Positions 4,961-22,993 of a DNA stretch of 22,993 nucleotides are shown piece after piece (the first letter of the stretch is position 1; each line of letters begins with the position of its first letter). The stretch spans positions 1 to 22,993 of the IMG/VR virus record IMGVR_UViG_2713896729_000008, one strand, 5' to 3'. The position numbers and the translations under genes are program-made. This DNA comes from a virus (Duplodnaviria > Heunggongvirae > Uroviricota > Caudoviricetes). The notes beneath the pieces were generated by a model, which made no database searches, had not been told where the DNA came from, and saw nothing but the letters and a program-made list of their open reading frames with translations.

Positions 4961-5411
4961 GGTTGTTCTCCTGATTCTCCGGCAGGTAGAGTTTCCCCAT
5001 TTCCTTGCCATCGTGCGAATACACCACCGATTTCTCACCCGTATAGCTGTCGGTCTCAATCCGGAAGCTCAGGGCGATATTGTCAGCAAGGCACAGGGCG
5101 GCTATCAGCGGCTGCACCGTTTTCTGCTGCATATCGGCAATGTAGTAATAACTGCCGGACTCACAGCCTTCCGGCGACTGGCGGGTTTTCATTACCGTGT
5201 ATTGCGGCGTGCCGAAGGCATCCTTTTTTACCCATTCCTGCACGATGTCGGATTTATGCGCCACCACATCGCTGAACGGTGGTGGAGTCAGGTCCTTAAA
5301 TCGGGCTATCGCTTTCACGCCAGCATCTTCCTTGCTGTCACAACCGGAAACACTGATAGCACTGATAACGGCCAGAACAGTGACAACAATACGCGGGTAT
5401 GTTTTTTTCAT
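4956..5411 (-). CDS. lipoprotein of unknown function
   Basis: 151-aa ORF; signal peptide with lipobox MKKTYPRIVVTVLAVISAISVSGC. Confidence 0.65.
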   Translation of the reverse strand: MKKTYPRIVVTVLAVISAISVSGCDSKEDAGVKAIARFKDLTPPPFSDVVAHKSDIVQEWVKKDAFGTPQYTVMKTRQSPEGCESGSYYYIADMQQKTVQPLIAALCLADNIALSFRIETDSYTGEKSVVYSHDGKEMGKLYLPENQENNP

Positions 5412-5449
5412 GACGTTGATCCCTTGCTGATAATATCGTTTTGACTGCG

Positions 5450-6085: not shown

Positions 6086-6795
6086 ACCTGTTCCTTATGG
6101 ATAATCTGCCCGTAACTGTCGTCAGCGAGCAGTGAATGAAAAAGATGAAAATGAGGTAACGCCTGTAAAAAATCCGGGCGTGACAGGATGCGGGTGAAAT
6201 GTCCGTCTGGTGTGAAGGTTTCCGGGTGAAACATCACAGAGTGAACAGTGTGCAGTGCAAAAATGGTTATCCTGCCGAGGTGTTCTCCTGCCAGAAACCA
6301 CTCACCGGAACTGAAAATCAGCCGGTAGGGAGCAAGGCTGTCGCAACGGCACCCGTCAGCCAGGAGGGTTACCCTTCGCTGTTCTGATACCGCCCTGACC
6401 AGTCGGGTGAAGATGCCCGGGCGGGAAGGCGGTATGGGTGCACCCTGATGCCAGATAAGGCATGGTGGGGTGCCCCGACCGCTTAGTAATGAGCTGACCA
6501 GATGGTGGTCCATCTCAGGAAACAGCGCGTCAGTGCCTGACTGACGGGCAAACTGCATTGCTGCCCCGGCCTGAATCTCGTGTCGTCCCCCGCTCAGCAG
6601 ACGGCAGCAGCCATTCTGATATTCGAGGTCGAGATAAATCAGACGCTCGCGGAAATCACGATGCAGGGTACGCTCCGAGACCCCAAACTCCGTCGCCAGT
6701 TTGCGCATATTCAGCGTTTCCCCCGCGAGCAGACGGCTGATAATCAGCGAAAGCCGGACAGACAGGCGGTCATAACGACGCTCAGCCTGAGACAT
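6082..6795 (-). CDS. HTH transcriptional regulator, YfjR-like (CP4-57 prophage family)
   Basis: 237-aa ORF; N-terminus MSQAERRYDRLSVRLSLIISRLLAGETLNMRKLATEFGVSERTLHRDFRER is a DeoR/YafY-type HTH and resembles E. coli YfjR as I recall it. C-terminal ligand domain not verifiable by eye. Confidence 0.7.
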   Translation of the reverse strand: MSQAERRYDRLSVRLSLIISRLLAGETLNMRKLATEFGVSERTLHRDFRERLIYLDLEYQNGCCRLLSGGRHEIQAGAAMQFARQSGTDALFPEMDHHLVSSLLSGRGTPPCLIWHQGAPIPPSRPGIFTRLVRAVSEQRRVTLLADGCRCDSLAPYRLIFSSGEWFLAGEHLGRITIFALHTVHSVMFHPETFTPDGHFTRILSRPDFLQALPHFHLFHSLLADDSYGQIIHKEQV

Positions 6796-7055
6796 GTATT
6801 ATCTCCGTGTTGGGTAAGTGATTAATTAAGAAGGTATTACTGTAAAGGATGAGACTGACAGGTTATGTCCGTGATACGTTGCGAAGCGCCTGGCGCGAAA
6901 AGGCCGTCTGGGTGCCCTGTTGGCAGCAGTAACGCGCTTATGACCGGTGGTATCTTTTGCTGGTGCAGACAGGTTATGTCTGCCACATAAAAATCATCTG
7001 CCGGATGATGAATAAACAGAGTCATTCACTACAGTCCTGATGACCTTTTACTCAT

Positions 7056-7931
7056 TCAGAAGAAGACCCAGTCCCAGACCGCGCGGGCTACAGACACCAC
7101 AGCATCACGCACGGTACGTATCACCGTCTTCAGCGGCGCAGGCAGGAATGACGATGATTCTGCCGTATCGAACACCAGCCCCACCGCCTCACCGAAGCCG
7201 TCACGGGCCTGCGACTTTACCGGCTCCGTGCAGAGCCTCCCGTGCAACTGTGTCGCCAGCGGGCTGGTGGCGCGGTCCGGAAGACAGCGCATCATGGTGC
7301 CCACCATCTCCTCAGTGCCCCATCCGGCCAGCGCGGACACCATGCAGACAGGATGATGTGGTTTAAACATCGCGGTAATGGCTACCTGCTTTTCCTGAAG
7401 ATTTGCCCATTGCTGTGCTGAAGGCGTGCTGGTTCGGGTATCCCATTCGTGGCAGGGTTCTATTTTGTCGGCCTGGTTAATCACGAACAACACCTGCTGC
7501 TGGTAAGGCTGCATCACGCCGCGCCAGAAATGCTCGTCCACCGACAGCGCCCGGTCATCGGCCTTAATGACCCACAACACCAGGTCCAGCTCCGGCAGCA
7601 TACGCCGGTACAGGGCGCGGTATTCCTGGTCCCGTTGTCCGTTTTCGCCCACGCCCGGCAAATCAACAATCACCAGACTGTGACGCCCGCTGCGTAGCCG
7701 GAAGCGCAGCACGGCACGGGTGCAGGCGTTCACATCACTGACGGCGGAGACTTTCCCCCGAAAGAGTTCGTTACAGAGCGACGACTTACCGACACCACTC
7801 TTGCCCATGATGCCAATCACCGGCTCGTAGTGGGTCAGATTCTGAATACGTTCAAGAATAAGCTGGCGAAGCGTATCGGGAAGCGACGACAGCGGTTGTT
7901 CAAGGGCCTGAAGGCCGTGTGGTTTAGTCAT
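7056..7931 (-). CDS. YfjP/YkfA/YeeP-family small GTPase (prophage-island GTP-binding protein)
   Basis: 291-aa ORF with G1 GIMGKSGVGKSS, G3 DLPGVGE and G4 NQADK motifs; size and motifs fit the cryptic-prophage GTPase family of E. coli. Confidence 0.75.
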   Translation of the reverse strand: MTKPHGLQALEQPLSSLPDTLRQLILERIQNLTHYEPVIGIMGKSGVGKSSLCNELFRGKVSAVSDVNACTRAVLRFRLRSGRHSLVIVDLPGVGENGQRDQEYRALYRRMLPELDLVLWVIKADDRALSVDEHFWRGVMQPYQQQVLFVINQADKIEPCHEWDTRTSTPSAQQWANLQEKQVAITAMFKPHHPVCMVSALAGWGTEEMVGTMMRCLPDRATSPLATQLHGRLCTEPVKSQARDGFGEAVGLVFDTAESSSFLPAPLKTVIRTVRDAVVSVARAVWDWVFF

Positions 7932-7948
7932 AAAGGATTCTCAGCGTG

Positions 7949-7989
7949 AAAAACAAAAATCCCCGCACTCCGGTCAGGGAGGCGGGGGA
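7949..7989 (-). terminator. candidate rho-independent terminator (minus strand)
   Basis: On the minus strand, a GC-rich imperfect hairpin (cccgcctcc ... ggagtgcggg) is followed by gatttttgttttt, about 60 nt downstream of the stop of the 8054-8881 gene. Confidence 0.45.
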
Positions 7990-8053
7990 TTCACGAAGAT
8001 AATATCTGTCTGAGATTATTTCGAATGAAGCTTATTGCTTCTGCCATATCACT

Positions 8054-8881
8054 TTATGATTGCCGTGATTGACTCTTCGCATCATTAAAAGCATTGTTAA
8101 TCAGTTCGTTAAGAATTTCCTTCGATGTGGTCTTCTCTACATGCGCAATAAACTCAAGTTTTTTTTGAGCCGCTTTGGTCAACTTCACAGCAGCTGGTTC
8201 CTTAGCTCTTCTGGCTCTTCTTTCCTTTTGCTCCCATGCATTTTTAAGCTCATCAAGAAGAATATCTTTATGATTTTTATTGATGCCATTTTCCGGCATG
8301 ATGCCATGTCCAAGAAACTTTCCTTTATTACGCCTTTTATTTTTGCCGTTAAGATAAGATTCCTGCTCGGTAGTCCATCCTTTCCAGTTATCAAAAATAG
8401 CAAAGATAAAATAATATTTCTCTTTATTATCATGTGGTTTTAATGGAATGCCTAAGCATCGTTCCTGCATTTGTTGCCATAACCACTGGCATTGAGTTTC
8501 ATCTTTGCTGTTAACCCATGAAAAAGGTGCTGGGTAAAGGGCGTACTGGTGACGCCATTCGATATCTATAGATGAGATTAAATTTGATATTTTTTGAGGC
8601 TTTTTTACGAAGGTTATCAACAGGTGTACGAATAAAGAAAAGCCAACGTTTCTCTCTGAGACATCCTTAATTCTTTTAAAAAGTAACCCGTTTGCATTTC
8701 TGATATTTTCAGGTGGAATTTTATCGGTCTTTTCTTTTTTATCTTGTTTACAGGTACTAAGGTTTATTTTCTCCGGGGACGAGAATGCGGAGGAAGAAGT
8801 TTTATTTTTAGCATCAATAGTACTGGATTGTTTATCAATAGTATCCACTAACTCAGCAGGAAGAGTCTGCGACCACGGCAT
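8054..8881 (-). CDS. hypothetical protein in AT-rich DNA, K/R-rich C-terminus
   Basis: 275-aa ORF in a visibly AT-rich stretch; no motif I recognise. C-terminal third is strongly basic (KNKRRNKGKF..., KERRARRAKEPAAVKLTKAAQKK). Confidence 0.5.
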   Translation of the reverse strand: MPWSQTLPAELVDTIDKQSSTIDAKNKTSSSAFSSPEKINLSTCKQDKKEKTDKIPPENIRNANGLLFKRIKDVSERNVGFSLFVHLLITFVKKPQKISNLISSIDIEWRHQYALYPAPFSWVNSKDETQCQWLWQQMQERCLGIPLKPHDNKEKYYFIFAIFDNWKGWTTEQESYLNGKNKRRNKGKFLGHGIMPENGINKNHKDILLDELKNAWEQKERRARRAKEPAAVKLTKAAQKKLEFIAHVEKTTSKEILNELINNAFNDAKSQSRQS

Positions 8882-8980
8882 AATATCGCGGGAAGGCTGA
8901 GTATATTGACTGGTGGATATAGGGTGATGCTGCCAACTTACTGATTTAGTGTATGATGGTGTTTTTGAGGTGCTCCAGTG

Positions 8981-8990
8981 NNNNNNNNNN
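8981..8990. other. assembly gap (10 N)
   Basis: Run of n. Confidence 0.95.
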
Positions 8991-9200
8991 GATGCTTATA
9001 TCGCAATAACTCCTGACACCTCAATATTACATATGGCAAGTGCCTATAATACCCCTGTTGTTGCAATTTATGCTGATTACAAAACGCGATGGCCCGCAAT
9101 GGCCGATGTCTCGGAGTCAGTCGTCGTTGGGCAAAAAATTGACAATATAAGTCTGGATGAATTCGCAAAGGCATTAAAAAGTGTTTTGGCGAGAATATGA
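8991..9200 (+). CDS. glycosyltransferase family 9 (heptosyltransferase-like) C-terminal fragment
   Basis: Frame open from the gap: DAYIAITPDTSILHMASAYNTPVVAIYADYKTRWP... resembles the conserved C-terminal nucleotide-sugar-binding segment of LPS heptosyltransferases. Confidence 0.5.
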   Translation, partial: DAYIAITPDTSILHMASAYNTPVVAIYADYKTRWPAMADVSESVVVGQKIDNISLDEFAKALKSVLARI

Positions 9201-9461
9201 GACAGTACTTATGCATAGTAATGCCGATCTGTTATGAACGGTGGTGTCATCAATACTCTGAGGCTGGTCAATCATCACAGAAAACCAGCCTTTAGATCAA
9301 AGCAGTACTCACCGAAAATGATCATAGTCACATCGAACGCGATTCTGGCGGTGCCGCATTTTTATTTATTCATTTTCTGTGAGAGAAGGGCTAGTTCTGT
9401 AGAGGGAATGTAAAAAAGAGTGCCCCGAATGGAACACTCTTTAAGAAATTATAACGGAAAA

Positions 9462-10317
9462 TCACAGGTTTTTATAACATGTCGCATAAGAAAACCCAAG
9501 CTTTTCAAATACGCTTTGATCACCTGTTGCCAGGGAAACTACGTATTGTTCGCTTGAGTTTGCGGGACTAGATGACCAATACATATTTGATTGAAAACCA
9601 GCGTCAGTCGTGTAATGCCCCATATCTCCCCATTCACTGTACAGTGACCCGATGCCTCGGGAACTACAGTGGTTTAAATAGTTTGCTCTGGGGAGCGTGT
9701 AGCCATTGCTGCTGCAAAAATTTTCAGCAAGGCTGTATATCATGAAAGCCTCGCCGGCGTTCACCCACCAACTCTTCACACGGATTTCGTATACATAGCT
9801 AGGGCCTCCTGATTTTGGCGTCGCCGTAATCCTTTCCGAATTGCTGCCGACATTTTTAAATGTCACTTTACCGGTAGCATCAACATCGACCCAGGAGGCA
9901 GAGCTTGAAAACTCATAATCAGCCGCCGTTTTTCCTGGGGCAAAGTTGTCATTATTCAACTGATAATACGCCCCGGTGAACCCCTGCGAAGGGAATGTAG
10001 TTGTCGGTAGGTCAGTACCATTGACTGATACTGTACCGCTCATTATTTTGTCTTCTGCGCGAGTGAATTGTATTGTGGTACTCAGACCAGCTTGATGAAC
10101 ACCATTCAATACAGGGATCAGCGTTGCGATACCCTCTCCGCCTCCTGTAACAGTGGCTTTGTAATCACCGTTGATATTTAGACTGTAATCAATTGCGCTA
10201 ATTTTTATATAGGGCACGTTAGTACCTGATTGCACAAATTCCATCCCTTCAGAAACTTTGATCGGATTGCCTGATATATCGTGCAGAACAAGACGTAATT
10301 CAGCACTATCGGTATAG
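9462..10317 (-). pseudogene. invasin/intimin-family adhesin, C-terminal portion, 5' end truncated by IS3
   Basis: Minus-strand frame is open from the stop at 9462 right up to the IS3 terminus at 10318 with no credible start (track starts at an internal Met, 10244). Contains a beta-rich Ig-like segment and a Cys-containing C-terminal domain (...NFCSSNGYTLPRANYLNHCSS...SYATCYKNL) reminiscent of invasin/intimin lectin-like domains. Confidence 0.5.
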
Positions 10318-10347
10318 TGATCCTACCCACGTAATATGGACACAGGC

Positions 10348-11214
10348 CTAAGCGAGGTTCTTGTTTTCAAATTGTTCCGGACTGAGGCCGCCACACCAAC
10401 TGTGCCGCCGCCACCGATTGTAATCACATTCGATATAATTAAACACCGTTGCCCGCATTATTTCCCGGCTGATAAAGTGTTCTCCATGGATACATTCCAC
10501 TTTCAGCGAATGAAAGAAGCTTTCCACGCAGGCATTATCGTAGCAGCAACCTTTTGCGCTCATACTTCCACGCAGATTATGCCGCTTCAGTTGCGCCTGA
10601 TAATCTGCTGAACAGTACTGGCCTCCACGGTCCGTGTGAACGATAACGTTCCGGGGCCTCTTACGCCGCCACAGCGCCATCTGCAGGGCATCGCAGGCCA
10701 GTTGCGCCGTCATGCGTGGCGACATTGACCAGCCAATAACGGCACGTGACCACAGGTCAATGACCACTGCCAGATACAGCCAGCCTTCATCTGTACGTAA
10801 GTACGTGATGTCTCCTGCCCACTTCTGGTTCGGGCCACTGGCGTAAAAATCCTGCTCCAACAGATTTTCTGACACAGGCAGGCCGTGTGCGCGGTAGCTG
10901 ACCGGGCTGAACTTCCGGGAGGCCTTTGCCCTCAGTCCCTGACGGCGCAGGCTTGCCGCCACGGTTTTTACGTTAAAGGGGTAACCCTGAGCACGCAGTT
11001 CATCCGTCAGGCGTGGGGCACCGTAACGCTGTTTTGACCGGGTAAAAGCCGCGAGGACAACGCTGTCGCAGTGTTGGCGGAACTGCTGACGCGTGCTTAT
11101 CCTTGTCCGCCGCTGACACCACGTATACCAGCCGCTGCGGGCCACCCGGAGCACGCGGCACATTGCTTTTATGCTGAACTCAGCCTGATGTTTTTCAATA
11201 AAGACATACTTCAT
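10348..11214 (-). CDS. insF: IS3 OrfB (InsF), DDE transposase catalytic region
   Basis: 288-aa [32 protein letters not shown]...[12 protein letters not shown] is recognisable as IS3 InsF; overlaps orfA by 4 nt. Confidence 0.85.
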
Positions 11215-11510
11215 TTCAGGCGCTTCGCGAAGTATGTCGCGGCCTTTTGGAGGATAGCCAGCTCTTCATCCCGTTCTGCCAGCTGGCGTTTGAGACGTGC
11301 AATCTCGGTAGACATCTCCAGTTCACGTTCAGAAGACGTCTGCTGATTTTGCTGTTTACTGCGCCAGTTGTAGAGTTGTGATTCATACAGGCTGAGTTCA
11401 CGGGCTGCGGCAGTAACACCGATGCGTTCAGCAAGCTTCAGGGCTTCACTGCGAAATTCAGGCGAATGCTGTTTACGGGGTTTTTTACTGGTTGATACTG
11501 TTTTTGTCAT
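11211..11510 (-). CDS. insE: IS3 OrfA (InsE), transposase N-terminal HTH protein
   Basis: [32 protein letters not shown]...ATYFAKRLK is recognisable as IS3 InsE; the track ORF begins two in-frame codons-plus upstream at 11519. Confidence 0.85.
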
Positions 11511-11575
11511 GTGAGTCACCTCTGACTGAGAGTTTACTCACTTAGCCGCGTGTCCACTATTGCTGGGTAAGATCA

Positions 11576-11902
11576 CTGAACCAGTGGGATGCGCTGTGCT
11601 ACTACTGTGAAGATGGCCTGGCAGAGCCTGATAACAACGCTGCCGAACGAGCCCTTCGTGCCGTCTGTCTTGGGAAAAAGAATTTTATCTTCTTCGGCAG
11701 CGACCACGGTGGTGAGCGCGGAGCCCTGCTGTACGGACTGATCGGGACGTGCAGGCTGAATGGTATCGATCCGGAAGCCTACCTTCGCCATATCCTGAGC
11801 GTACTGCCGGAGTGGCCCAGCAACAAAGTGGCCGAACTGCTGCCATGGAACGTGGTTCTTACCGATAAATAACCGTCAATACGGCGCTCACTTAACGCTT
11901 AC
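11576..11902 (+). mobile_element. IS66-family element remnant: transposase (TnpC) C-terminal 98 codons plus probable terminal repeat
   Basis: Frame open from the first base after IS3: ...DNNAAERALRAVCLGKKNFIFFGSDHGGERGALLYGLIGTCRLNGIDPEAYLRHIL...ELLPWN, stop at 11870-11872. This is the conserved IS66 TnpC C-terminal signature. The sequence ...cgcttac ending near 11902 is the reverse complement of the GTAAGCG IS66-type terminus. Confidence 0.75.
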
Positions 11903-12075
11903 AATTGGCGTTAGTGTTAGACATATATTCAAGCCTATCTCTTATCTGGAGATACAGCTACTGTCTGGTGTTTCAGGGGGCTACATTAGTAACAATCCTG
12001 ACACTGAGGGCATCAGGTCTTTCTTCAATCTCACACTCCGATTATCTGAGCAAAAATTTCTCTATATTTAGTGCA

Positions 12076-12103
12076 TTTACAAATATATCTGATTTCGTAA
12101 ACT
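12076..12103 (+). promoter_or_regulatory. candidate sigma70 promoter for the defence operon
   Basis: TTTACA (12076-12081), 16-bp spacer, TAAACT (12098-12103), in an AT-rich 270-bp intergenic region upstream of the SNF2 gene. By-eye hexamer match only. Confidence 0.25.
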
Positions 12104-12176
12104 AGATTTCAGAATTGAAAATTGGTTCTGAAAAAGGTAGACCAGTTTAGAACCTGAGCTGATTACAGGAAATGGA

Positions 12177-14027
12177 ATGGTTTATTCGATAAAACACGGC
12201 ATTGTCGAGCAGGACGGGTGTCCAATCGATCCCGAATTGCTTTTTAGACTTGGCAAATTTGTAGCTGAGGCTAGAGACAGCGAAACTACTTTGGTCATCT
12301 CAAAACGCCCAGCTGAACTGAAATTCCGGTTCAGCCATGAACCAGCGCCTTCATTCAGATTGTTTTTCAGGGAGGTAGAGCTTACTCCTGATCAGGTGAA
12401 TTCTTTGGTGGAATACGGTTATTTTATTGCTGATGGCAAGCGGGTGTATTTTGTCAGTGACAGACTTAAGGATTTCTCCGTATCTGCCTGCAACAAGCTG
12501 TCACTCCCCGGATTGCTCAAACTACTTCGCAAACTATACAATGATGGACTTATTGACGCTCTTCCATCATCCCTTGTAGAGAAGCTCAGGGCACAGCAGC
12601 AGAAAATATCACTCCACGATAAACTCTTTGTCAGGGAACTCTACCCCTACCAGAATGAAGGTGTTGCATGGCTGACCTTCTGTGCAGCCAACGGTGTGGG
12701 TACCATCCTTGCCGATGATATGGGTCTGGGTAAGACTGCTCAAGTAATTGCCCTGTGCTGCGATGTTCTCGAACACAATCCTGAAGGTAGGATCCTTATT
12801 GTTGTTCCCAATCCTCTGCTGGCCAACTGGATCAGAGAATTTTCTTTTTTTGCTCCTTCACTCAGACCTTTTCTCCATTATGGGCAGAACAGGAGCGGTC
12901 TCAGTTCAGATCTTTCCGAGCACAATATAATTGTTACTCCCTATACCGTATTGAGTTCCGATATTTCGATGCTGGAAGAAATCCCGTTTGACCTTGTACT
13001 TTATGATGAAGCCAGTATGCTGAAAAATCCTCAGTCGGGCAGATCTCTTGCAGCAAGACGTCTTGATTCTGTTGCTTCCGTTGCAATGTCGGGAACTCCT
13101 GTCGAGAACTGCCTTCTTGACGTCTGGGCTCTCTGTGACCTGGTTTTCCCCGGTTTTCTCGGAAACGAGCAGGATTTCAGATCTCGTTATGTCCATCGCG
13201 AACTGTCCAAAACGCTCAATACGGATCTACACGGGCTTGAAAACAGTCTCCGGCAGATAACCCTGCGACGTATGAAAAAAGATGTCCTGACACAGCTGCC
13301 TGAAAAAATGGATATTCACAGAGCTGTTACCGCAGGAGACAAGGAACGAAATACCTATGAATCCATCATTGAGGAGATGCAGCAGGATGCGGCAAAAGGA
13401 GGAGGAGGTATGCTACCCCTGATCAACAAACTACAGCAGTTTACTGCACATCCGGCTCTTCTAGATCCGAGCATACCCCATGATGTCAAATCCCTATGCC
13501 TCCACAGCGCCAAATTCGAACTACTGATGATGGAACTGGACGGCATAGAACAATCCGGAGAAAAAGTCATCATCTTTGCCACATTCCAGAAGGCAATCGA
13601 TCTGCTAGGTGCTGCAGTTAGGGAACGTTATGGCATCACCCCAGGAGTGATTGACGGACGGACTCCAAATGAACAACGGCAGCCGCTGATTGACAGATTT
13701 TCCAAATCGTCCGGATTCGATCTGCTGCTGTTGCACCCTAAAACAGCCGGTATGGGGCTAAATATCACCGCTGCCACCAATGTAATCCATTATTGCCGAC
13801 AGTGGAATCCGGCCCTTGAGGCACAGGCTACGGCAAGAGCATGGAGAAACGGACAGAAATCTGTGGTTAGCGTTTACTACATGTATTACGCGGATACTGT
13901 CGAAGAAATGATCGATGAACGGATACGAATGAAACAGAAGCTTAGCGAGCAGGTTGTTGCAGTGGCCGACTATAAAGAAACAGACAAACAGCTGATGCTG
14001 GAATATTTGGAATCGATAAAAAAATGA
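12177..14027 (+). CDS. SNF2-family helicase-like ATPase
   Basis: 616 aa; RBS aggaaa upstream of ATG. Motif I LADDMGLGKT, motif II LVLYDEASMLKN, motif III MSGTPVEN, motif V GMGLNITAATNV, motif VI QATARAWRNGQ. N-terminal ~150 aa without recognisable motif. Confidence 0.9.
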   Translation: MVYSIKHGIVEQDGCPIDPELLFRLGKFVAEARDSETTLVISKRPAELKFRFSHEPAPSFRLFFREVELTPDQVNSLVEYGYFIADGKRVYFVSDRLKDFSVSACNKLSLPGLLKLLRKLYNDGLIDALPSSLVEKLRAQQQKISLHDKLFVRELYPYQNEGVAWLTFCAANGVGTILADDMGLGKTAQVIALCCDVLEHNPEGRILIVVPNPLLANWIREFSFFAPSLRPFLHYGQNRSGLSSDLSEHNIIVTPYTVLSSDISMLEEIPFDLVLYDEASMLKNPQSGRSLAARRLDSVASVAMSGTPVENCLLDVWALCDLVFPGFLGNEQDFRSRYVHRELSKTLNTDLHGLENSLRQITLRRMKKDVLTQLPEKMDIHRAVTAGDKERNTYESIIEEMQQDAAKGGGGMLPLINKLQQFTAHPALLDPSIPHDVKSLCLHSAKFELLMMELDGIEQSGEKVIIFATFQKAIDLLGAAVRERYGITPGVIDGRTPNEQRQPLIDRFSKSSGFDLLLLHPKTAGMGLNITAATNVIHYCRQWNPALEAQATARAWRNGQKSVVSVYYMYYADTVEEMIDERIRMKQKLSEQVVAVADYKETDKQLMLEYLESIKK

Positions 14028-15622
14028 CAGATAAAATTGAATTACAGGAAAATGATTTCCGCCCTTCTGCTGCGAGGCTGGTCGAAAGCCTCCGTGATAC
14101 GGGATACAGTGAAAAAGCGGCATTTGCTGACATTGTAGACAATTCAATAGCAGCTAATGCTACGAAAATTGCCATCGAGCTCCAATATCTAATGGGTGAG
14201 TTCCGAGTAGTCATTACCGATAACGGTGATGGAATGACTGAGTCCGAGCTGAAGAATGCGATGCGGTACGGTTCCGAAAAACGGCCGAATCCGAAGTCAC
14301 TGGGCAAATTCGGAATGGGGCTGAAAACTGCGTCTACGGCATTCTGCCGTAGACTGGTGGTACTTTCACAGAAAGAAGGAACTGCAGTAGGCCGTATCTG
14401 GGATCTCGATACCATCAGTGAAAAAGATCGCTGGGAACTCGAGACCCCAGATGAAAACGACTATTACGACGATTTCGAAGTTCTTGAGGATTTCTCCGGA
14501 AATTCAGGCACCATGATTGTCTGGGAAAAAATTGATCGTCTGATCAAGCCAGGCAGCGATAGACAGATGCTTGATCAGATCCGGACCCTCGGTAAGGAAC
14601 TTGTTGACGAACTGAGTGCCGTCTTTTTCAAATATCTTTCCTCCGGAAACGTAGAAATTTCACTCAAAATTGCGGATGAACCCGAAATCCTTCTCCAAGG
14701 ATGGGATCCCCTGTCTACTGAACTTGTTACCAGTGGCGGGGCCCGTCCCCAGCTCTTGAAAGAAAAGAAAATCCGCGTCGAGTTCAACGGAAACAGCTAT
14801 TCTTTCACAATCAGAGGAAGCCTGATTCCATCGCAGAATGAGCTGACTGCGGAAGAGCAGGAGGCTGTGAGATACGGATTGGATAACCAAGGGTTCTATA
14901 TCTATCGAGAAGACCGGTTGATATGGAATGACGGCTGGCCTCACCGAATGTATAAAAAGGAAGGTAAGATCACCCGTCTGCGTGTCGAGCTGGTTTTCTC
15001 CCATGAACTTGATGATGTATTCAGTATCGATTTCCGCAAAAGCCGAGTGATAATCCCTGTTGAAATCCGTAGGGAACTGCAGTCGCTGATTGCTCCATGG
15101 CGTCAGGCACTACTTTCCGTTCCGTCAAAAAAACAATCTGAACAGTCCGGTTCGACACGTGCACATGGTCCTGCTGATAATGCGATAGATAAGCAGAAAA
15201 ACCGTACAAAAAACTCCGATATAAAGGTTGATGGCGAAACAGTTACTATCAGAAACCAGAACCAGCCCAAACCTGCAGTAATCAACGATATACGCGTCTA
15301 TGAGGACAAGACTGTCAGGGTTCACGAAGAAAACTCCCTGATGGGTGACAATCTCTGGGAACCGTCATGTGACATTGATGGAAACACCTGCGTAACACTT
15401 GGGAAGTCGCATCCATATTTCCTGAGAATGTATGATGTCTGCAAGGACAATGTAGAAGCCATGAAAGCTCTCGACATGCTTCTGTGGAGCCTTGCAAATG
15501 CCGAACATGGTGAATACTCAGAAGCGAACAAGCACACCCTGAAAGGATTCCGCCAGAAGGTCAGTGAGAGTCTTCGTTATCTCAGCCTTGAACTGCCGGA
15601 TCCGGAAGAGGATTCAGAATGA
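14024..15622 (+). CDS. GHKL (Bergerat-fold) ATPase, MutL/MORC-like
   Basis: 532 aa; ATG overlaps the SNF2 stop (ATGA). N-box DIVDNSIAANATKIAIEL (compare MutL ELVENSLDAGAT), G1 box VITDNGDGM, G2 box GKFGMGLK. C-terminal ~300 aa unassigned. Confidence 0.85.
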   Translation: MTDKIELQENDFRPSAARLVESLRDTGYSEKAAFADIVDNSIAANATKIAIELQYLMGEFRVVITDNGDGMTESELKNAMRYGSEKRPNPKSLGKFGMGLKTASTAFCRRLVVLSQKEGTAVGRIWDLDTISEKDRWELETPDENDYYDDFEVLEDFSGNSGTMIVWEKIDRLIKPGSDRQMLDQIRTLGKELVDELSAVFFKYLSSGNVEISLKIADEPEILLQGWDPLSTELVTSGGARPQLLKEKKIRVEFNGNSYSFTIRGSLIPSQNELTAEEQEAVRYGLDNQGFYIYREDRLIWNDGWPHRMYKKEGKITRLRVELVFSHELDDVFSIDFRKSRVIIPVEIRRELQSLIAPWRQALLSVPSKKQSEQSGSTRAHGPADNAIDKQKNRTKNSDIKVDGETVTIRNQNQPKPAVINDIRVYEDKTVRVHEENSLMGDNLWEPSCDIDGNTCVTLGKSHPYFLRMYDVCKDNVEAMKALDMLLWSLANAEHGEYSEANKHTLKGFRQKVSESLRYLSLELPDPEEDSE

Positions 15623-16542
15623 ATTATGAATACGATCTGGCCGATTTCAAACGTTACCTTTACGACAAAAACCACAGTTACAGGGTAGATGGACTGATTT
15701 TCTGGCAGAACAGGATTCCGTTGCCGATTGACCTGTTCAATCGAATATTCGATGAATCAGATCTGATAATTGCAGATTTTGTTTATCAGGTAGCAGCAAG
15801 CGCTGCCGTTTTCAGCGAAAAAGAGTCATTCGAGAGTACCTTCGGGCTGGAAGTGACAAATCTTCCAACCGACAAGCTTAAAGCGGAAATACCAGCACTG
15901 TCCACGTGGGTGGATGAACATCTGCCTGAAAATTGCAGAATTGTCCGTATGATATATGAAATCGCGGAGCTTCTGGGCCTTTCAGAGTTCAGGTTTTCCG
16001 GTGATAGGATCGCAAAATCGCTTGCTCACCAAGGGAAAAAGTATGCCCGTCTATTCATGCCGAGTCCGGTAAAGGATCTGGTGAACAACATTCAGGGATG
16101 TGACACCATCGGGCAGGACAATACTGACATGTTCGGTAATATCATTGCCGACCGTTATAATATTTACCGTTCAGGTTTCAGTGATGCCTTGGCTATCATA
16201 TTCAATGCCCTACTCGAATTTAGGCTCCTGTTTTCTGGAAAAAGCGGCAATCTGCCTAGATTTAGGGTAATGATGACTGCTCCTGACGACATCGATATTC
16301 GTTTCGGTAAAACAGCCGACGGTTCATTGTGGGAACCTGGTTACGGGGACGATCATTTCATTACCATCAATACTGAACATCCCGTGATGAAAAATCAGGC
16401 GAAAGACCAGGGCTGTGCACTGGCCGAATTGCTGTTTTTTATGGGGCAGTATGAAAACTCTCAGTTTTCGGACCAGAACAAGAAATTTATTGAAAACATG
16501 CGACAGACAATATCCAGAAATCTCTGGATCAAGTATGACTAA
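15619..16542 (+). CDS. hypothetical protein, operon partner of unknown function
   Basis: 307 aa; ATG overlaps the GHKL stop (ATGA); same strand and frame-coupled inside the operon; no motif I recognise. Confidence 0.7.
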   Translation: MNYEYDLADFKRYLYDKNHSYRVDGLIFWQNRIPLPIDLFNRIFDESDLIIADFVYQVAASAAVFSEKESFESTFGLEVTNLPTDKLKAEIPALSTWVDEHLPENCRIVRMIYEIAELLGLSEFRFSGDRIAKSLAHQGKKYARLFMPSPVKDLVNNIQGCDTIGQDNTDMFGNIIADRYNIYRSGFSDALAIIFNALLEFRLLFSGKSGNLPRFRVMMTAPDDIDIRFGKTADGSLWEPGYGDDHFITINTEHPVMKNQAKDQGCALAELLFFMGQYENSQFSDQNKKFIENMRQTISRNLWIKYD

Positions 16543-16569
16543 TTTTTCTCATGCAAGGACGGGACAAGT

Positions 16570-18510
16570 ATGCTTTCAGAACTGGATATGGTGATGAACT
16601 GGTTCAAAAATGAACCTGAATCGGCATGGCAATTCGATGAGATCGGATTCGATGATGAAACAAGAACGGTTCTATCAACAACCGGACTGACATTGCTGGA
16701 CCATACAGCACGGATGAAAACTGGAAGCGGGTATCACTGTTATATACCATGCCAGTATCTGATGTATATGCTAAAGATTGGGCCATTTGTAAGACTACTG
16801 GACAACTACATCTCTGTATTCGAAGAAATCAAAAAAAATATGTTTCCGGCAGAATTCGAAGCAATGATCGAAAGCGGAACGTCAAACGAGCAGGCGCTCG
16901 TTTCGCTGGACATCTACAGCCGCAGTAACTTTTTCTGGGCTTTCAAAGATCCCAGAACAAGACTTGAGGCAAAAAATCTAATAAACACGAGCTCAAAAAC
17001 TGGGAAAAAGAGTTATAGGCAATCCGATGATTTTGTCAAATCGGTCTTGCTGGCATCATTGCCGGTCCCGAATGTAAGCTCGGAAACACTCGGTACCCTG
17101 ATTCTTGATCTGGTGCGTTCTCAAGAAACATATGATTACCTTCAAAGGAGATATATGCCCAGTCTTCCTTATATGTTCAGTGTTCCTGATGGGGATGAAC
17201 TGCTGTTCAGAATAATGACAACCATTGGCTGGTCCGGTCAGTTTGAGCCTTTACTGGGGACTGACCCCGATGCCGAATTTGTTTCATGGAATGATATAGA
17301 CAGGGCATTTCTTCTCCGCCCATCCAGGGAACCCGGCAATGCGCTGTATGTCCAGAATCCCGTCCATTTTTCTGTTCCGCTGGAGAAATATATTTTCATC
17401 AGAAAGGGTCTCTTGGATACTCCCGATTCACTTGAAAAAATATCGGTTCTGGTTTCCGGTTTATGGCTGGGGATGAGTATCCGGAACAGAGAGGGCAAGT
17501 TCTTTTTCGAGTCATCGACCAGAGCCTCCGTATCCGGACCTAGAGTGACCGGTGGAACGAACAGAATCTTCTATGGGGCACCCGGTACGGGAAAAAGCTA
17601 CAGGGTCCATGGTGAAATGAGTGACGGTGCAGAAAAGATTGTCACAGTTTTCCATCCTGATACTCAGCATAACGATTTTGTCGGTGCCCTGAAGCCTAAA
17701 ATGGAAAAGAATGAACAGGGAGAAAGCAGCATAACCTACAGTTTCAGACCAGGCCCCTTTACCTGCGCACTCATACTGGCCATTGCTCGTCCAGACAGAA
17801 AGGTCTGTCTCATTATCGAAGAAATCAACCGTGCTTCTGCTGCAGCTGTCTTCGGCGAGCTTTTCCAGCTTCTAGACAGGGAGCCTGATGGAACGAGTAC
17901 CTACAGCATCAATGCCACTGATCCGGATATGATCGAGTATATAAATACGGAACTAGGTACTATGGGATGTACTCCTGTCGATAGCTTACGGATCCCGTCC
18001 AATATGTCTCTACTGGCTACCATGAACAGCAGTGATCAGGCAGTTATGCCGCTGGATACTGCATTCAAACGGCGCTGGAATTTCGAATATCTACCAATCG
18101 ATTTATCAAAACCGGAGATCCCACAAACCGAAATCGTTTTCACCACCAATTCAGGAAAATATTCGGTACTCTGGCGCGATTTTGCTCAAATTATTAATGA
18201 CACCCTTGTCGAATGTGAAATAGCAGAGGATCGTCTGATCGGCCCGTTTTTCCTAGATTCTAAAGAACTGGAAAATAGGGAAGCAGCGAAAGCTGCCCTT
18301 GGCGGAAAACTGTTCATCTATTTGTGGGATGATGTGCTGAGACATGTCGGACACCAGAAAATATTTGCGTCTACCTTCAGAACGTTCGGCAACCTATCTG
18401 CAGCATTTCGCAATGACATGGCTGTTTTCTCCACTGCCGTAGAGAACAGACTTGAAGGGGTGGGCACTCCTGTTGACATGAACAGGGATCCGCAAGATGT
18501 TGCCAGCTGA
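16570..18510 (+). CDS. McrB-like AAA+ GTPase with unrelated N-terminal domain
   Basis: 646 aa. C-terminal half has Walker A RIFYGAPGTGKSY, Walker B CLIIEEINRASAAAVFGELFQLLDRE (McrB DEINRA-type signature) and MSLLATMNSSDQ...DTAFKRRW. N-terminal ~330 aa has no resemblance I can see to the E. coli McrB DNA-binding domain. Confidence 0.85.
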   Translation: MLSELDMVMNWFKNEPESAWQFDEIGFDDETRTVLSTTGLTLLDHTARMKTGSGYHCYIPCQYLMYMLKIGPFVRLLDNYISVFEEIKKNMFPAEFEAMIESGTSNEQALVSLDIYSRSNFFWAFKDPRTRLEAKNLINTSSKTGKKSYRQSDDFVKSVLLASLPVPNVSSETLGTLILDLVRSQETYDYLQRRYMPSLPYMFSVPDGDELLFRIMTTIGWSGQFEPLLGTDPDAEFVSWNDIDRAFLLRPSREPGNALYVQNPVHFSVPLEKYIFIRKGLLDTPDSLEKISVLVSGLWLGMSIRNREGKFFFESSTRASVSGPRVTGGTNRIFYGAPGTGKSYRVHGEMSDGAEKIVTVFHPDTQHNDFVGALKPKMEKNEQGESSITYSFRPGPFTCALILAIARPDRKVCLIIEEINRASAAAVFGELFQLLDREPDGTSTYSINATDPDMIEYINTELGTMGCTPVDSLRIPSNMSLLATMNSSDQAVMPLDTAFKRRWNFEYLPIDLSKPEIPQTEIVFTTNSGKYSVLWRDFAQIINDTLVECEIAEDRLIGPFFLDSKELENREAAKAALGGKLFIYLWDDVLRHVGHQKIFASTFRTFGNLSAAFRNDMAVFSTAVENRLEGVGTPVDMNRDPQDVAS

Positions 18511-19771
18511 TATTCTGTATCTTTCAGACAGGACACCTGTCACCGATCGCAGTATTCCTGCGACCGTGCTCGATGAGCTGAGAAACAGGGGGCTGCTGGC
18601 CCCCGACATGCAGAAAATCCATTTCTGTGGAGTCATGTCTTTCAGTGGAGGTCTGGCTGTATTTCTGCCACGAAATAACAGTTCTTCTCGTGAATCGCAG
18701 GCTCTTTCAGCACATTATCTGCTCCGCTCACTCCTGAAATTCTACCGAGATAGAGACACCGGTGTTTTTGATGGGGATGCAGGAACCGGACTTATCGGTG
18801 GTGAATCCCTGTCGTTGGCAACTGCACTGATTGACGACTATCAGACGAATGGTCTCTATGTCCGCCGGATTAGAGTCGATACAACCAACTCCGGAAAAGT
18901 TGTATGGCCGGAGACAATTGCCCGAGGGACTGCCTATACTAGCCCATCTGGGCCTGTATATATCGATCCTGTAACCACACGTTCGCGCTACCTCACCGAT
19001 AGCGAGACAGCAAAGATTCATGCCTCTGTAATGAGGGAGCTCTATCCGGTATACGGAATGCTCTGGACAGGCAGTCAGGGCACTCCTGAACGACTGCAGA
19101 ATGTTCCGCGTCCTGAGGGAAATGTTTTCTCATGGGTTGTACACCTAAGAAGAGAACTGCAGTTCAGCTATTCCGAAAGGGATATTTTCCTTTTGCGGAG
19201 ACTGATCATGTATCTTGAAACAGGGAGAGGAATGCGGAATGGCGGGGTTCTTATCGGTGTCAGGAAGTTTCACAGTCTGTGGGAAGCCATGCTGGATGAA
19301 TGCTTGGTGGGTAAATACCGAGTTAACAATAAATTGCCTATTCCCGTGTATCGGGCCGGCAGTGACAGGTTTGTTCCCGTTGCCAACAAGAGCCAGAGAA
19401 CGGATACGGTTCTCCACAATGCAGAAAAAACGCACGTCGCGATCATAGATGCCAAATACTATGATGCGAAGACACCGGATAGTGCTCCTGGTTGGCCGGA
19501 TCTGGTAAAACAGTTTTTCTACCAGAAGGCGCTTTCTTACCTAGTGCCGGTCGGTACCCACATCACAAACCATTTCATTTTTCCTGGAACAGAAAAGCCA
19601 CTCAGGGCTGTCCATGTTGCGGAAAGGGGAAAGGTTCTGGTTACAGAAGCTGACTGTCTGTCCGAATATCCGCCGATTCATTGCCATTACCAGGATCCCC
19701 TAGAACTACTTCGGCTGTATTCAACAGGAGAAAAGCTGGTAGAACTGACCCGCGAAATTTTTACAGTCTGA
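18497..19771 (+). CDS. McrC-like PD-(D/E)xK nuclease subunit
   Basis: 424 aa; start overlaps the McrB-like stop by 14 nt (mcrBC-type arrangement); contains ...TDTVLHNAEKTHVAIIDAKYYD, fitting the (I/V)DxKY nuclease motif of McrC and LlaJI.R2. Confidence 0.7.
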   Translation: MLPADILYLSDRTPVTDRSIPATVLDELRNRGLLAPDMQKIHFCGVMSFSGGLAVFLPRNNSSSRESQALSAHYLLRSLLKFYRDRDTGVFDGDAGTGLIGGESLSLATALIDDYQTNGLYVRRIRVDTTNSGKVVWPETIARGTAYTSPSGPVYIDPVTTRSRYLTDSETAKIHASVMRELYPVYGMLWTGSQGTPERLQNVPRPEGNVFSWVVHLRRELQFSYSERDIFLLRRLIMYLETGRGMRNGGVLIGVRKFHSLWEAMLDECLVGKYRVNNKLPIPVYRAGSDRFVPVANKSQRTDTVLHNAEKTHVAIIDAKYYDAKTPDSAPGWPDLVKQFFYQKALSYLVPVGTHITNHFIFPGTEKPLRAVHVAERGKVLVTEADCLSEYPPIHCHYQDPLELLRLYSTGEKLVELTREIFTV

Positions 19772-19883
19772 AAAGATTCGGACTATGCCCAGAAATGTCG
19801 ATAGACATGAGACCCCCTCATTGATTGATCATCCGTACAGTGATACTATCGCCGGGAATAAAACCGGATAAGGTGAGCATGGG

Positions 19884-21200
19884 ATGGACAGTAAGAATAA
19901 ATTCCAATATATCAAAAATATGAGAAAAAAATTAGGCATAGGTCGCACCGAATTTGCCAATCTTCTCGGACTCGGTGCCACCGGAGAACGTACAGTCCGA
20001 GGATGGGAAGAAGAGGAACATGAACCGTCTTCCGCCAAATGGCAGGCCATTCTCGATGTGGAAAAGAAGATGACTGAATATCTGGAAAACGCACCTTTCC
20101 GCCAGAAGCCTGAAAATGAATGCAATTTCACCTTCATCGATCTGTTTGCTGGTATCGGAGGTATTCGTCTTCCTTATCAGCAGCAGGGAGGGCACTGTGT
20201 ATTCTCATCCGAATGGGACAAGTTCTCCCAGAAGACCTATCTAACGAATTTCGGCGAAATGCCCCAAGGTGACATCACTAGAATTCCGGCATCCGACATT
20301 CCTGATCACGATGTACTGCTTGGCGGATTTCCATGCCAGGCTTTTTCACAGGCCGGTTTGAAAAAAGGTTTCAGCGATACCCGTGGAACCATGTTCTTCG
20401 AAATTCAGCGGATAATGACAGCCAAGCGTCCAAAGGCATTCATGTTGGAAAATGTCAAGCAACTGCAGGGACATGATAAGGGTCGTACCCTGAAAACCAT
20501 TCTCGATATCCTGCGGGGCAATGGAACCCATTCCGTTCCGGACGATATCCCGATTAGTGAGGATGCCCGCAATGCTCTGTCCGAAAAACTCAATTACTGG
20601 GTTGATTACCGTGTACTGCGTGCAGGTGACTTCGGTGCCCCCCAGAACCGTGAACGTATTTTCATCGTTGGTTTTGACCGTGACTATTATAGGGGCGTGG
20701 ATTTCGACAGTGTATTCAGATGGCCGGTACCTCCTATGACTCCGACCCGTGTTGGTGACATTCTGGAAGACCTCGATCGTCTGCCTCTATCACAAGACAG
20801 ATATACCATCTCGGATAGACTGTGGATAGGCCACCAGAAACGGAAACTGGAACACGAAAAGAAAGGTAACGGTTTCGGCTATTCTCTTTTCAACAAGGAC
20901 AGCGAATACACTAATACCATCAGTGCACGTTATTACAAGGACGGCTCCGAAATCCTGATTGACCAGTCACATTTGGGTAGGAACCCACGCAAGCTAACTC
21001 CGCGCGAATGTGCACGTCTACAGGGATTCCCTGACGACTACATCGTCGATGCTGTTTCACAGGGCCAGATCTACAAGCAATTTGGCAACTCTGTCTGCAT
21101 GAATGTCATCCGTGCTGTCTCGGAACAGTTGGTCGAAACTATGAAAAAAGCCGAAATACTGGCTGGTAAGAACCAGGGTCTGGAGCGAACAGCAGGCTAA
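19884..21200 (+). CDS. DNA (cytosine-5) methyltransferase with N-terminal XRE-type HTH domain
   Basis: 438 aa; RBS aaggtgag. N-terminal HTH-like KKLGIGRTEFANLLGLGATGERTVRGWE. C5-MTase motifs I FIDLFAGIGGIRL, IV GGFPCQAFSQAG, VI FMLENVKQL, VIII QNRERIFIVG, IX RKLTPRECARLQGFPDDY, X KQFGNSV. Confidence 0.9.
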   Translation: MDSKNKFQYIKNMRKKLGIGRTEFANLLGLGATGERTVRGWEEEEHEPSSAKWQAILDVEKKMTEYLENAPFRQKPENECNFTFIDLFAGIGGIRLPYQQQGGHCVFSSEWDKFSQKTYLTNFGEMPQGDITRIPASDIPDHDVLLGGFPCQAFSQAGLKKGFSDTRGTMFFEIQRIMTAKRPKAFMLENVKQLQGHDKGRTLKTILDILRGNGTHSVPDDIPISEDARNALSEKLNYWVDYRVLRAGDFGAPQNRERIFIVGFDRDYYRGVDFDSVFRWPVPPMTPTRVGDILEDLDRLPLSQDRYTISDRLWIGHQKRKLEHEKKGNGFGYSLFNKDSEYTNTISARYYKDGSEILIDQSHLGRNPRKLTPRECARLQGFPDDYIVDAVSQGQIYKQFGNSVCMNVIRAVSEQLVETMKKAEILAGKNQGLERTAG

Positions 21201-21730: not shown

Positions 21731-22993
21731 CTACATATTACCCCGGTTGATCTTCGCATAGTCAAACGGCGTAATTCCCCTTTCCCGATTGGCATCCAGA
21801 AAATCAGCCCACCACTGCAACATCAGCTTGCGCTCATCCAGATGTTCCGCTTTATGAATATACGCCGCCCTCACCGAATTGCGTTCCATATGGCTCATCT
21901 GCCGTTCTACCGCATCTCTGGACCAAAGACCTGACTCAATCAACGAACTACAGGCCATTGCCCGGAAGCCGTGACCACAGACATCGACCTTTGTATCATA
22001 GCCCATCAGACGCAGTGCGTTATTTACAGTGTTCTCACTCATGGGTTTCCATGGATTGTGATCGCCGGTGAAAATCAGTTCATGTTCTCCGCTGATAGTG
22101 TGGATCTGCTTCAGTATATTCACCGCCTGAGTAGATAGTGGCACAAGATGCTCTGTTCGCATTTTTGAGCCACGATGGGAATACTTGACCCCTTCAATAG
22201 GTTTCCGCTCAGGAGGAATGGTCCACATGGCTTTCTTGAAGTCGATCTCAGACCACCTGGCAAAGCGTAGTTCGCTGGAACGGATGAAGATAAGCAGGGT
22301 GAGTTTAGTTGCCTGCCGGGTGAGAGGTTGTCCTCTGTAGGCATCCAGTCGTTCAAGAAGCTCTGAAATGCGATTTAAGGCGAGGGCAGGGCGGTGCTGG
22401 CGTTTCACTGTGGTTAACGCGCCAGCCATATCCAAGGCAGGGTTATAGGTGATAATGCCTGACTGGGCAGCATAGCGCATGATTGCAGTGATACGCTGCT
22501 GAAGGCGCGCTGCGATTTCATATATCTCCTTTGCTTCGGCTGCTTTAACGGGAACAAGTAAATCGGGAGTCCTGAGGGTGGTAATGTCACGTGAACCAAT
22601 AAAGGGGAAAACATGAGTTTCGAGGCTTTTCAGTATCCTCTCATTGTGTGAGGCTGACCATTTTTTGTTGCTCTTATGCCACTGTCTTGCGATGCCTTCA
22701 AATGTCTGAGCTGTTTCGGGTACCGACTTTTTGATCCTTTTCTGTTCGCATGGGTCAGTTCCCTCAGCTATCAGCTTTCTCGCCGTATCGCGTTTTTCCC
22801 TTGCTTCTGATAACGAGACTTCAGGATAGACCCCCAGAGCGAGCGTTTTCTCTTTGCCCAGAAACCGATAGCGGAGCCGCCAGTAGCGAGAGCCGTTAGG
22901 GTGAACGAGCAAGAACATGTTGCCGCTGTCGGCAAGTTTATAAGGTTTTTCATCCGGTTTAGCGGCACGGATTTTAGCGTCAGTGAGCGCCAT
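21731..22993 (-). CDS. int: P4-type tyrosine integrase (site-specific recombinase)
   Basis: 420 aa; N-terminal arm-binding region MALTDAKIRAAKPDEKPYKLADSGNMFLLVHPNGSRYWRLRYRF typical of the P4 Int / IntA family; catalytic region with HGFRAM (HxxR) and RAAYIH (Tyr). The start codon is the final three bases of the window. Confidence 0.9.
   Translation of the reverse strand: MALTDAKIRAAKPDEKPYKLADSGNMFLLVHPNGSRYWRLRYRFLGKEKTLALGVYPEVSLSEAREKRDTARKLIAEGTDPCEQKRIKKSVPETAQTFEGIARQWHKSNKKWSASHNERILKSLETHVFPFIGSRDITTLRTPDLLVPVKAAEAKEIYEIAARLQQRITAIMRYAAQSGIITYNPALDMAGALTTVKRQHRPALALNRISELLERLDAYRGQPLTRQATKLTLLIFIRSSELRFARWSEIDFKKAMWTIPPERKPIEGVKYSHRGSKMRTEHLVPLSTQAVNILKQIHTISGEHELIFTGDHNPWKPMSENTVNNALRLMGYDTKVDVCGHGFRAMACSSLIESGLWSRDAVERQMSHMERNSVRAAYIHKAEHLDERKLMLQWWADFLDANRERGITPFDYAKINRGNM

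Follow-up and report, generated by a model that had tools for sequence, protein, structure and literature searches.

HTH-Fused Cytosine Methyltransferases and the Locus under Study

Fusion of a helix-turn-helix (HTH) domain to a cytosine methyltransferase is an established route by which restriction-modification systems control themselves without a controller protein. The gene considered here lies at 19884-21200 on the plus strand of IMG/VR virus record IMGVR_UViG_2713896729_000008, a stretch of 22,993 nucleotides (nt) that we call the window, and it is a further example of the HTH-fused CCNGG methyltransferase design (SsoII/ScrFIA type), not a new kind of system. What its clade offers is a specific operator candidate, distinct from the sole well-studied one. 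We think it quite probable, from sequence comparison, that the product is a two-domain enzyme of the M.SsoII/M.ScrFIA kind, which would methylate CCNGG and, through its HTH domain, bind its own promoter and repress its own synthesis.

The regulatory site of SsoII is a compact 15-bp palindrome, AGGACAAATTGTCCT, located about 30 nt ahead of the start codon (cf. PMC2760811). Binding sites that overlap a promoter have their precedent in SsoII/Ecl18kI and MspI (PMC2760811). In SsoII and Ecl18kI the enzyme competes there with RNA polymerase, and in the window the likely binding site again lies over the gene's own promoter. Arg35 and Arg38 of M.Ecl18kI are required for binding of the regulatory site and for regulation, and their loss abolishes binding (PMC3695355); the isolated HTH domain of this enzyme failed to bind its own operator (PMC2760811). 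Like M.SsoII, M.Ecl18kI and M.Kpn2kI, to which both of its domains are homologous, the window enzyme has an HTH region of about 70 residues, equivalents of Arg35 and Arg38, and the CCNGG signature. Unlike M.SsoII, it contains a 23-residue insertion (residues 211-233) and a C-terminal tail; its linker is longer, and in helix 3 it has Gly40 where SsoII has Arg. Its operator candidate is an asymmetric 21-bp block with outward arms and an embedded CCNGG, not a 15-bp palindrome. The partner of SsoII is a divergent type IIP endonuclease, whereas here it is a McrB-like plus LlaJI-like pair in a same-direction six-gene operon. In the SsoII layout the two genes share the regulatory region, and the bound methyltransferase clears the facing promoter and increases transcription of the restriction gene. 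SsoII-type systems are found on ColE1-type plasmids, and the window locus on a chromosomal integrative island.

For M.ScrFIA of Lactococcus lactis, N-terminal DNA-protein interactions beyond the methylation site were shown experimentally, as cited in the relevant passage of PMC3346939. The methyltransferases of the Psychrobacter plasmid pP62BP1 (ORF9 and ORF25) were described as predicted CCNGG enzymes with an HTH_XRE domain, in a paper that gives no operator description (PMC3346939). The pP62BP1 enzyme is 64% identical to that of the window. In the pP62BP1 and M.ScrFIA systems the partner is a tail-to-tail LlaMI-family endonuclease, which differs from the window.

The LlaJI system has two methyltransferases and an asymmetric site, and its M1 enzyme represses through its own recognition sites, not through a fused HTH domain. 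The regulatory function of M1.LlaJI has been confirmed experimentally (PMC3695355). Our locus resembles LlaJI (M1, M2, R1, R2) in its McrB-like NTPase and LlaJI-family nuclease pair, recognized by REBASE-derived REase_II models, and in its same-direction genes; unlike LlaJI, it has a single methyltransferase gene, with an SsoII-type fused HTH domain. Controller (C) proteins are products of free-standing genes, act at paired C-boxes and usually switch on the endonuclease gene. They share with the window enzyme the XRE fold and a proposed role in feedback control of the system's genes, but in the window the HTH domain is part of the enzyme itself, and there is just one copy of the conserved element. 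The HTH domain of M.Ecl18kI was reported to be distinct in sequence from C proteins (PMC2760811).

The Methyltransferase and Its N-Terminal Domain

The gene encodes 438 aa from an ATG start and was assigned as an HTH-fused C5-cytosine DNA methyltransferase and M.SsoII homologue from its open reading frame (ORF), Pfam and BLASTP. The LlaJI-like ORF in front of it ends at 19771, leaving a gap of 112 bp; the gene and gap coordinates of the sequence-only reading were exact. A ribosome-binding site, AAGGTGAG, is present at 19870-19877. The ORF matches Pfam DNA_methylase (PF00145) with E = 1e-94, and its core aligns to M.HhaI with E of about 1e-63. The catalytic domain (20124-21200, plus strand) was delimited by motifs read from the sequence, the M.HhaI alignment and invariant columns. 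It contains motif I, FIDLFAGIGG, at residues 84-93 (20133-20162; FAGIGG at 88-93), PCQ with the catalytic Cys151 at residues 150-152 (20331-20339), ENV at 189-191, QNRER at 254-258, TPRECARLQGFP at 372-383 and GNSV at 401-404. The C5-methyltransferase motif set is complete in the ORF (I, IV PCQ, VI ENV, VIII QxRxR, IX, X GNSV). By family, this is a complete and intact C5-cytosine methyltransferase, and methyl transfer itself is predicted. An identical protein is named DNA (cytosine-5-)-methyltransferase, MULTISPECIES Enterobacteriaceae; the gene itself had no megablast match among 5,426 complete E. coli genomes. The insertion relative to M.SsoII (GNGTHSVPDDIPISEDARNALSE, 20514-20582) is conserved throughout the clade, and the model shows part of it as helix.

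The N-terminal regulatory region comprises residues 1-80 (19884-20123, plus strand), that is, the XRE/HTH_3 part followed by a helix (50-68) and a linker. The Pfam HTH_3 match covers residues 10-58 (19911-20057). All 14 aligned family N-termini, drawn from a wider set than the 25 homologues of 70-100% identity used below, match HTH_3, with a best E of 1.1e-12, and a search of the PDB with the profile of these N-termini returned XRE/Cro-type structures only. The first 80 residues were modelled with AlphaFold2 from an alignment built without M.SsoII and two other loci. Four helices were predicted (3-17, 21-28, 31-42 and 50-68), with a mean predicted local distance difference test score (pLDDT) of 86.6 and values of 93-96 across residues 11-60. 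The top Foldseek matches of this model all belong to the XRE family (HigA2, CylR2, HipB, MqsA, P22 c2 and controller proteins, among them C.Csp231I, C.BclI, C.Kpn2I, C.Esp1396I and C.AhdI), with C.Csp231I superimposing at a root-mean-square deviation of 0.9 A over 56 columns. Foldseek probabilities were 0.97-1.0, and the E-values were weak (0.1-1) because the domain is short. Foldseek with the full-length model found methyltransferase structures only and gave no information on the N-terminal domain.

In the 25 homologues the residues I10, R14, G34, E35, R36, T37, R39, G40, W41, E42 and P48 are invariant. The predicted recognition helix (residues 31-42, GATGERTVRGWE, 19974-20009, plus strand) is the AlphaFold2 helix that holds R36 and R39. 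According to the profile alignment, the turn before helix 3 carries a three-residue insertion relative to typical XRE domains. The first 70 or so residues are, by family matches and predicted structure, an XRE/HTH_3 domain. The sequence-only reading had set such a domain apart from a core beginning at FIDLFAGIGG and had staked its proposal on the N-terminus folding as an HTH; motif I does lie beyond the domain, the family HTH_3 matches, AlphaFold2 and Foldseek agree, and a confident XRE fold is predicted.

Kinship to M.SsoII and the Probable Target

In BLASTP the methyltransferase is 52% identical to M.SsoII/M.Kpn2kI (WP_000131511.1, 379 aa) over residues 10-420 (E = 1e-146). The alignment begins at query residue 10 and M.SsoII residue 9 and therefore runs through the N-terminal regulatory region, which in M.SsoII comprises residues 1-71, so that the precedent named in the sequence-only reading turns out to be a true homologue in this part as well. 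A tblastn search of plasmids led to Shigella, Klebsiella (pKPN2) and Enterobacter plasmids of about 4.2 kb with the SsoII, Kpn2kI and Ecl18kI systems. In the strict published sense, "SsoII-like" denotes plasmid systems about 99% identical (PMC6100179), and at 52% protein identity the window methyltransferase is outside that group. By BLASTP mapping, R36 and R39 are the counterparts of Arg35 and Arg38 of M.Ecl18kI, and they are invariant or nearly so among relatives.

What does the catalytic domain recognize? Residues 328-352 (20865-20939, plus strand) form a target-recognition signature, GNGF-x13-TI-x3-YYK, when compared with the published one; G(K/N)GFx13T(I/L)x3YYK was reported as typical of CCNGG methyltransferases (PMC3346939). 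The target-recognition region is roughly 65% identical to that of M.SsoII, as counted by hand from the BLASTP alignment. In Aliivibrio, Acinetobacter and Psychrobacter, relatives of 63-72% identity have LlaMI-family (CCNGG) endonucleases as partners. The cassette (12177-21200) contains 17 CCNGG sites against 29.7 +/- 5.9 expected under a first-order model, a count as low as this occurring in 1% of simulations, and there is no depletion outside it (50 sites against 49 expected in 1-11900). The conserved site inside the candidate operator described below is among these 17. Because the signature is present, relatives have LlaMI-family partners and the cassette is depleted of CCNGG, the specificity is likely CCNGG, with the inner cytosine methylated.

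A Conserved Block Upstream of the Gene

The 112-bp gap between the LlaJI-like and methyltransferase genes (19772-19883, plus strand) holds a predicted promoter, a candidate operator and the ribosome-binding site. The promoter (19821-19849, plus strand) consists of a -35 element TTGATT at 19821-19826, a 17-nt spacer and an extended -10 element TG-a-TACTAT at 19841-19849. We compared 17 loci encoding methyltransferases with about 60-100% identity to the window enzyme, drawn from Enterobacterales, Vibrionaceae, Aeromonas, Alteromonas, Oleispira, Acinetobacter and Psychrobacter. Most relatives outside the Moraxellaceae show, at corresponding positions, TTGAYT, then about 17 nt of spacer, then TGnTAnnnT; the four Moraxellaceae loci lack this promoter.

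The candidate operator (19852-19872, read on neither strand in particular) has the sequence CCGGGAATAAAACCGGATAAG and is the only place in the window that matches the block pattern without a mismatch. It is composed of CCGGG at 19852-19856, which is a CCNGG site, an A-rich 7-nt spacer and CCGGATAAG at 19864-19872. The block abuts the ribosome-binding site and spans the predicted transcription start through about +16; given the position of the promoter elements, this start falls inside its left end. In the form C(C/A)NGG-N7-(C/T)(C/A)GGATA, mostly followed by AG, the block is found in all 17 loci, its end 11-22 nt from the start codon, and pP62BP1 carries it upstream of its gene as TATCCGGG-aataaaa-CAGGATA. 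Within the block the loci share a mean pairwise identity of 80%, which drops to 33% in the outer flanks. The search pattern required neither the A-tract nor the AG at the end, and both are near-invariant. By matrix score no locus has a second copy: the block reaches 24-37 and the runner-up 12.4 at most, the two values in the window being 36.9 and 9.5. We regard 19852-19872 as the best operator candidate of the methyltransferase gene on this comparative evidence, which fits the expectation of the sequence-only reading that an operator would be found in 19772-19883.

The same reading had suggested the operon promoter as a second place to look for HTH binding; the region 11903-12176 contains no match to the block with up to two mismatches, and it is poorly conserved among the window, Pectobacterium and Pantoea. 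Within the gap, another palindrome, ATGTC-GATA-GACAT at 19795-19808, 13 nt upstream of the predicted -35 element, was rejected as operator or terminator because it is not conserved in relatives and no T-run follows it.

Could the block act as RNA, as a 5'-leader hairpin or riboregulator, or bind a host factor instead of the methyltransferase? Its CCGG...CCGG could form a short stem. The consensus fold, however, has only 3 pairs at -0.49 kcal/mol and shows no compensatory change, Rfam gives no match at E <= 1, and the hosts that carry the block range from Enterobacterales to Moraxellaceae and Alteromonas, in every case with the methyltransferase gene beside it. We find this explanation barely credible.

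Co-Variation of Helix 3 and the DNA Motif

The SsoII palindrome has no match with up to two mismatches in 19772-19883, and the rest of the window has five such matches, a number not above chance. Among distant HTH-methyltransferases, the SsoII-type site or a close variant was found in Collinsella (AGGACATATTGTCCT), Undibacterium (AGGACGTATTGTCCT), Thiobacillaceae (AGGGCGTATTGTCCT), Marinilactibacillus (AGGACAGTTTGACCT) and Carnobacterium (AGGACAATTTGACCT). All six proteins with R-R-W-E at the end of helix 3, from distant phyla, carry an SsoII-type palindrome or a close variant, and all proteins with the CCNGG-N7-CNGGATA block have R-G-W-E there. The half-sites are alike, GGACA in SsoII and GGATA in the window block. 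This co-variation of helix 3 with the DNA motif supports the view that palindrome and block are the HTH targets of their respective methyltransferases.

It also bears on the suggestion that the HTH domain is not a transcription regulator at all, and aids target recognition or docks to the restriction complex, the block being a promoter, leader or ribosome-binding element. The block does abut the ribosome-binding site, GGATAAGG overlaps it in several loci, and the four lysines studied in M.Ecl18kI (K21, K31, K46 and K53), important in that enzyme, are not kept in the window protein. Yet the strongest positions of the block fall outside any Shine-Dalgarno match, R36 and R39 do not vary, three unrelated restriction partners all come with the block, and, as said, helix and motif change together. 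A non-regulatory HTH domain is therefore very improbable, if a little less so than an RNA element.

Proposed Self-Regulation

The methyltransferase gene is most likely a self-contained module of promoter, candidate operator and gene. A sigma-70 promoter within the gap would drive it independently. When the mobile island enters a naive cell, which has no methyltransferase, the promoter would be free and the genome would become protected. As the enzyme accumulates, it would occupy the block over the transcription start and exclude or stall RNA polymerase, and its level would stay low and steady. The scan found no terminator-like site on the plus strand of the gap, so read-through from the upstream operon is possible, and the bound methyltransferase could also dampen or block such read-through from the restriction genes.

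Several observations weigh against self-repression through the HTH domain. The window's own N-terminus is below the HTH_3 cut-off (19.5 bits against 23, E = 0.001). The predicted promoter has just 8 of 12 hexamer matches and was for this reason passed over by a consensus scan of the plus strand of the gap, which needs 9 and reported no promoter; the proposed one rests on conservation and the TG extension. A repeat finder run on 19700-19960 detected no direct or inverted repeat, and the block was seen by locus comparison alone, with a search pattern and a scoring matrix derived from the same loci that they score. Both the conservation and the co-variation come from related clades and so from phylogenetically non-independent samples. 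The arms of the block face outward with about 16 bp between their centres, which sets the block apart from the compact SsoII palindrome, and the SsoII dimer geometry may not apply to it. Finally, the enteric blocks are strongly asymmetric with a weak left arm, where the outer TTAT expected from symmetry is not conserved.

This asymmetry would fit a composite, epigenetic operator, in which the catalytic domain would read the CCNGG site at 19852-19856 and the HTH domain GGATAA 14 bp away. Methylation of one site would then set the occupancy or strength of the promoter, combining the SsoII and LlaJI modes and refining the self-repression model. CC-N-GG is kept in 15 of the 17 loci with all four bases seen at N, and the fifth base, G, is invariant, although simple symmetry does not predict it and a dyad would make it spacer. 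The site persists within a cassette otherwise depleted of CCNGG. In the passages of PMC6100179 and PMC3978073 that concern the SsoII complex, the methyltransferase domains touch the DNA that flanks the regulatory site, and a flexible linker is described. On the other side, two loci (L094 and L012) have CAGGG, an uncontacted central base is frequent in ordinary operators, and the CCNGG target is itself only inferred. Two Acinetobacter loci (L014 and L098) have the block as a perfect inverted repeat with 8-bp arms, TTATCCTG-N8-CAGGATAA, which a plain HTH dimer site would explain. We hold the composite operator to be unlikely, though worth keeping in mind: if it were true, the enzyme would respond to its own concentration as well as to whether its promoter is methylated, and a portable gene-plus-switch module would have moved among at least three restriction partners.

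We return, then, to repression through the HTH domain. The sequence-only reading had proposed autoregulation together with timing control in place of a C protein. Homology and conservation make self-regulation of the methyltransferase likely, and it is the only part of that proposal which they support. SsoII-style switching-on or timing of the restriction genes is not supported for this gene order, because these genes lie upstream in the same direction and the operon promoter region has no block; it may apply to the divergent relatives. The block keeps company with the methyltransferase gene through three differing partner arrangements, and promoter and block are retained with every partner seen, whether an LlaMI-type endonuclease, a McrB/LlaJI pair or the six-gene SNF2-GHKL-McrB/LlaJI cassette. 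This retention suggests that the HTH domain serves primarily to hold the level of its own enzyme steady.

The Six-Gene Cassette and Its Relatives

The methyltransferase gene is the last of six same-direction genes. The first two, assigned from family matches, encode an SNF2 helicase (12177-14027, plus strand) and a GHKL/MORC-like, MzaB-like ATPase (14024-15622, plus strand). The third encodes a 307-aa protein without family (15619-16542, plus strand), for which Pfam, NCBIfam, PADLOC and PDB sequence searches gave no match and which is also present in the L095 and L096 cassettes. Next come a McrB-like AAA+ NTPase of 646 aa (16570-18510, plus strand; Pfam AAA_5 2.8e-10, PADLOC REase_II 1.7e-49, weak NCBIfam McrB) and an LlaJI-family endonuclease subunit of 424 aa (18497-19771, plus strand; Pfam RE_LlaJI 6.2e-32), likely restriction subunits 1 and 2, respectively. 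The methyltransferase gene is followed by a P4-type integrase gene (21731-22993, minus strand).

Ahead of the SNF2 gene, where the operon promoter presumably lies, we noticed a perfect 12-bp palindrome, TATCTGGAGATA, at 11943-11954. It resembles the TATCC/GGATA arms with a different spacing, and neither the Pectobacterium nor the Pantoea version conserves it.

Operons of GHKL/MORC and SNF2 genes with cytosine methylases and Vsr were predicted to be restriction-modification systems in passages of Iyer et al. 2008 (PMC2292703). The window cassette is like them in that a GHKL ATPase adjoins an SNF2 helicase and a cytosine methylase, with Vsr in the Pectobacterium relative. Those passages name HNH or EcoRII-like nucleases, not a McrB/LlaJI pair or an HTH-fused methylase (PMC2292703). 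The nearest PADLOC matches, ZorD, MzaB and DrmMII, are single components and make up no named system. A Vsr gene accompanies the system in Vibrio vulnificus (L005, 5543-5974) and Pectobacterium (L095, 264-740). Among the scanned window proteins there is no Vsr match, and the cassette may rely on host Vsr or need none.

The six-gene order recurs in L001-L004, L095 and L096, with Pectobacterium (where a Vsr gene and the integrase are also present) and Pantoea among its hosts. With its integrase and an identical methyltransferase, the cassette occupies four different chromosomal places (L001-L004), beside type II secretion genes, icd, dsbD/cutA and a prophage. Its behaviour is that of cargo on a mobile integrative island.

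A three-gene layout is associated with methyltransferases 70-83% identical to ours in Yersinia, Citrobacter, Aeromonas, Pantoea, Lelliottia, Vibrio and Salinivibrio. Here the methyltransferase gene diverges from the McrB-like/LlaJI-like pair across a gap of about 70-115 bp, an SsoII-like arrangement (L005, L007, L092-L094, L097 and L099). Compared with the Yersinia partners, the window LlaJI-like nuclease is 35% identical over its full length, and the McrB-like NTPase is 48% identical over residues 317-633 only. Residues 1-316 of the latter (16570-17520) are unlike the N-terminus of about 185 residues in the three-gene partner, in systems where the methyltransferases are about 80% identical. 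Pfam, NCBIfam, PADLOC and PDB sequence searches gave no match to the first 317 residues, and this region may represent another type of DNA-recognition domain, or else serve for docking to the SNF2/GHKL proteins.

In a third arrangement the partner is an LlaMI-family (CCNGG) type IIP endonuclease (L009, 11333-12103; L098, 2605-3387; L100, 5257-6042). Since these loci keep the same methyltransferase, promoter and block, we see one modification module with at least three kinds of restriction partner. The variant operator candidate, the portability of the module between restriction partners and the little-studied cassette add modestly to the interest of the locus, and in a poorly characterised six-gene cassette beside an integrase, a probably CCNGG-specific and self-limiting methyltransferase provides an entry point for study.

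Other Genes of the Island

The remainder of the island contains a P4-alpha-like primase with zinc ribbon, Toprim and D5_N (165-2147), a WYL-domain HTH protein (6082-6795, minus strand), a dynamin/MMR_HSR1-type GTPase (7056-7931, minus strand) and a short invasin/intimin-like fragment (9462-10244, minus strand). Several neighbouring ORFs are without family. An IS3-family transposase pair (HTH_Tnp_1 and rve) at 10348-11519, minus strand, lies directly upstream of the cassette. Next to it, at about 11560-11870, is an apparent C-terminal remnant of an IS66-family transposase, recognized only from an IS66 Pfam annotation at a similar offset in L002. Some sister loci share this junction, others do not.

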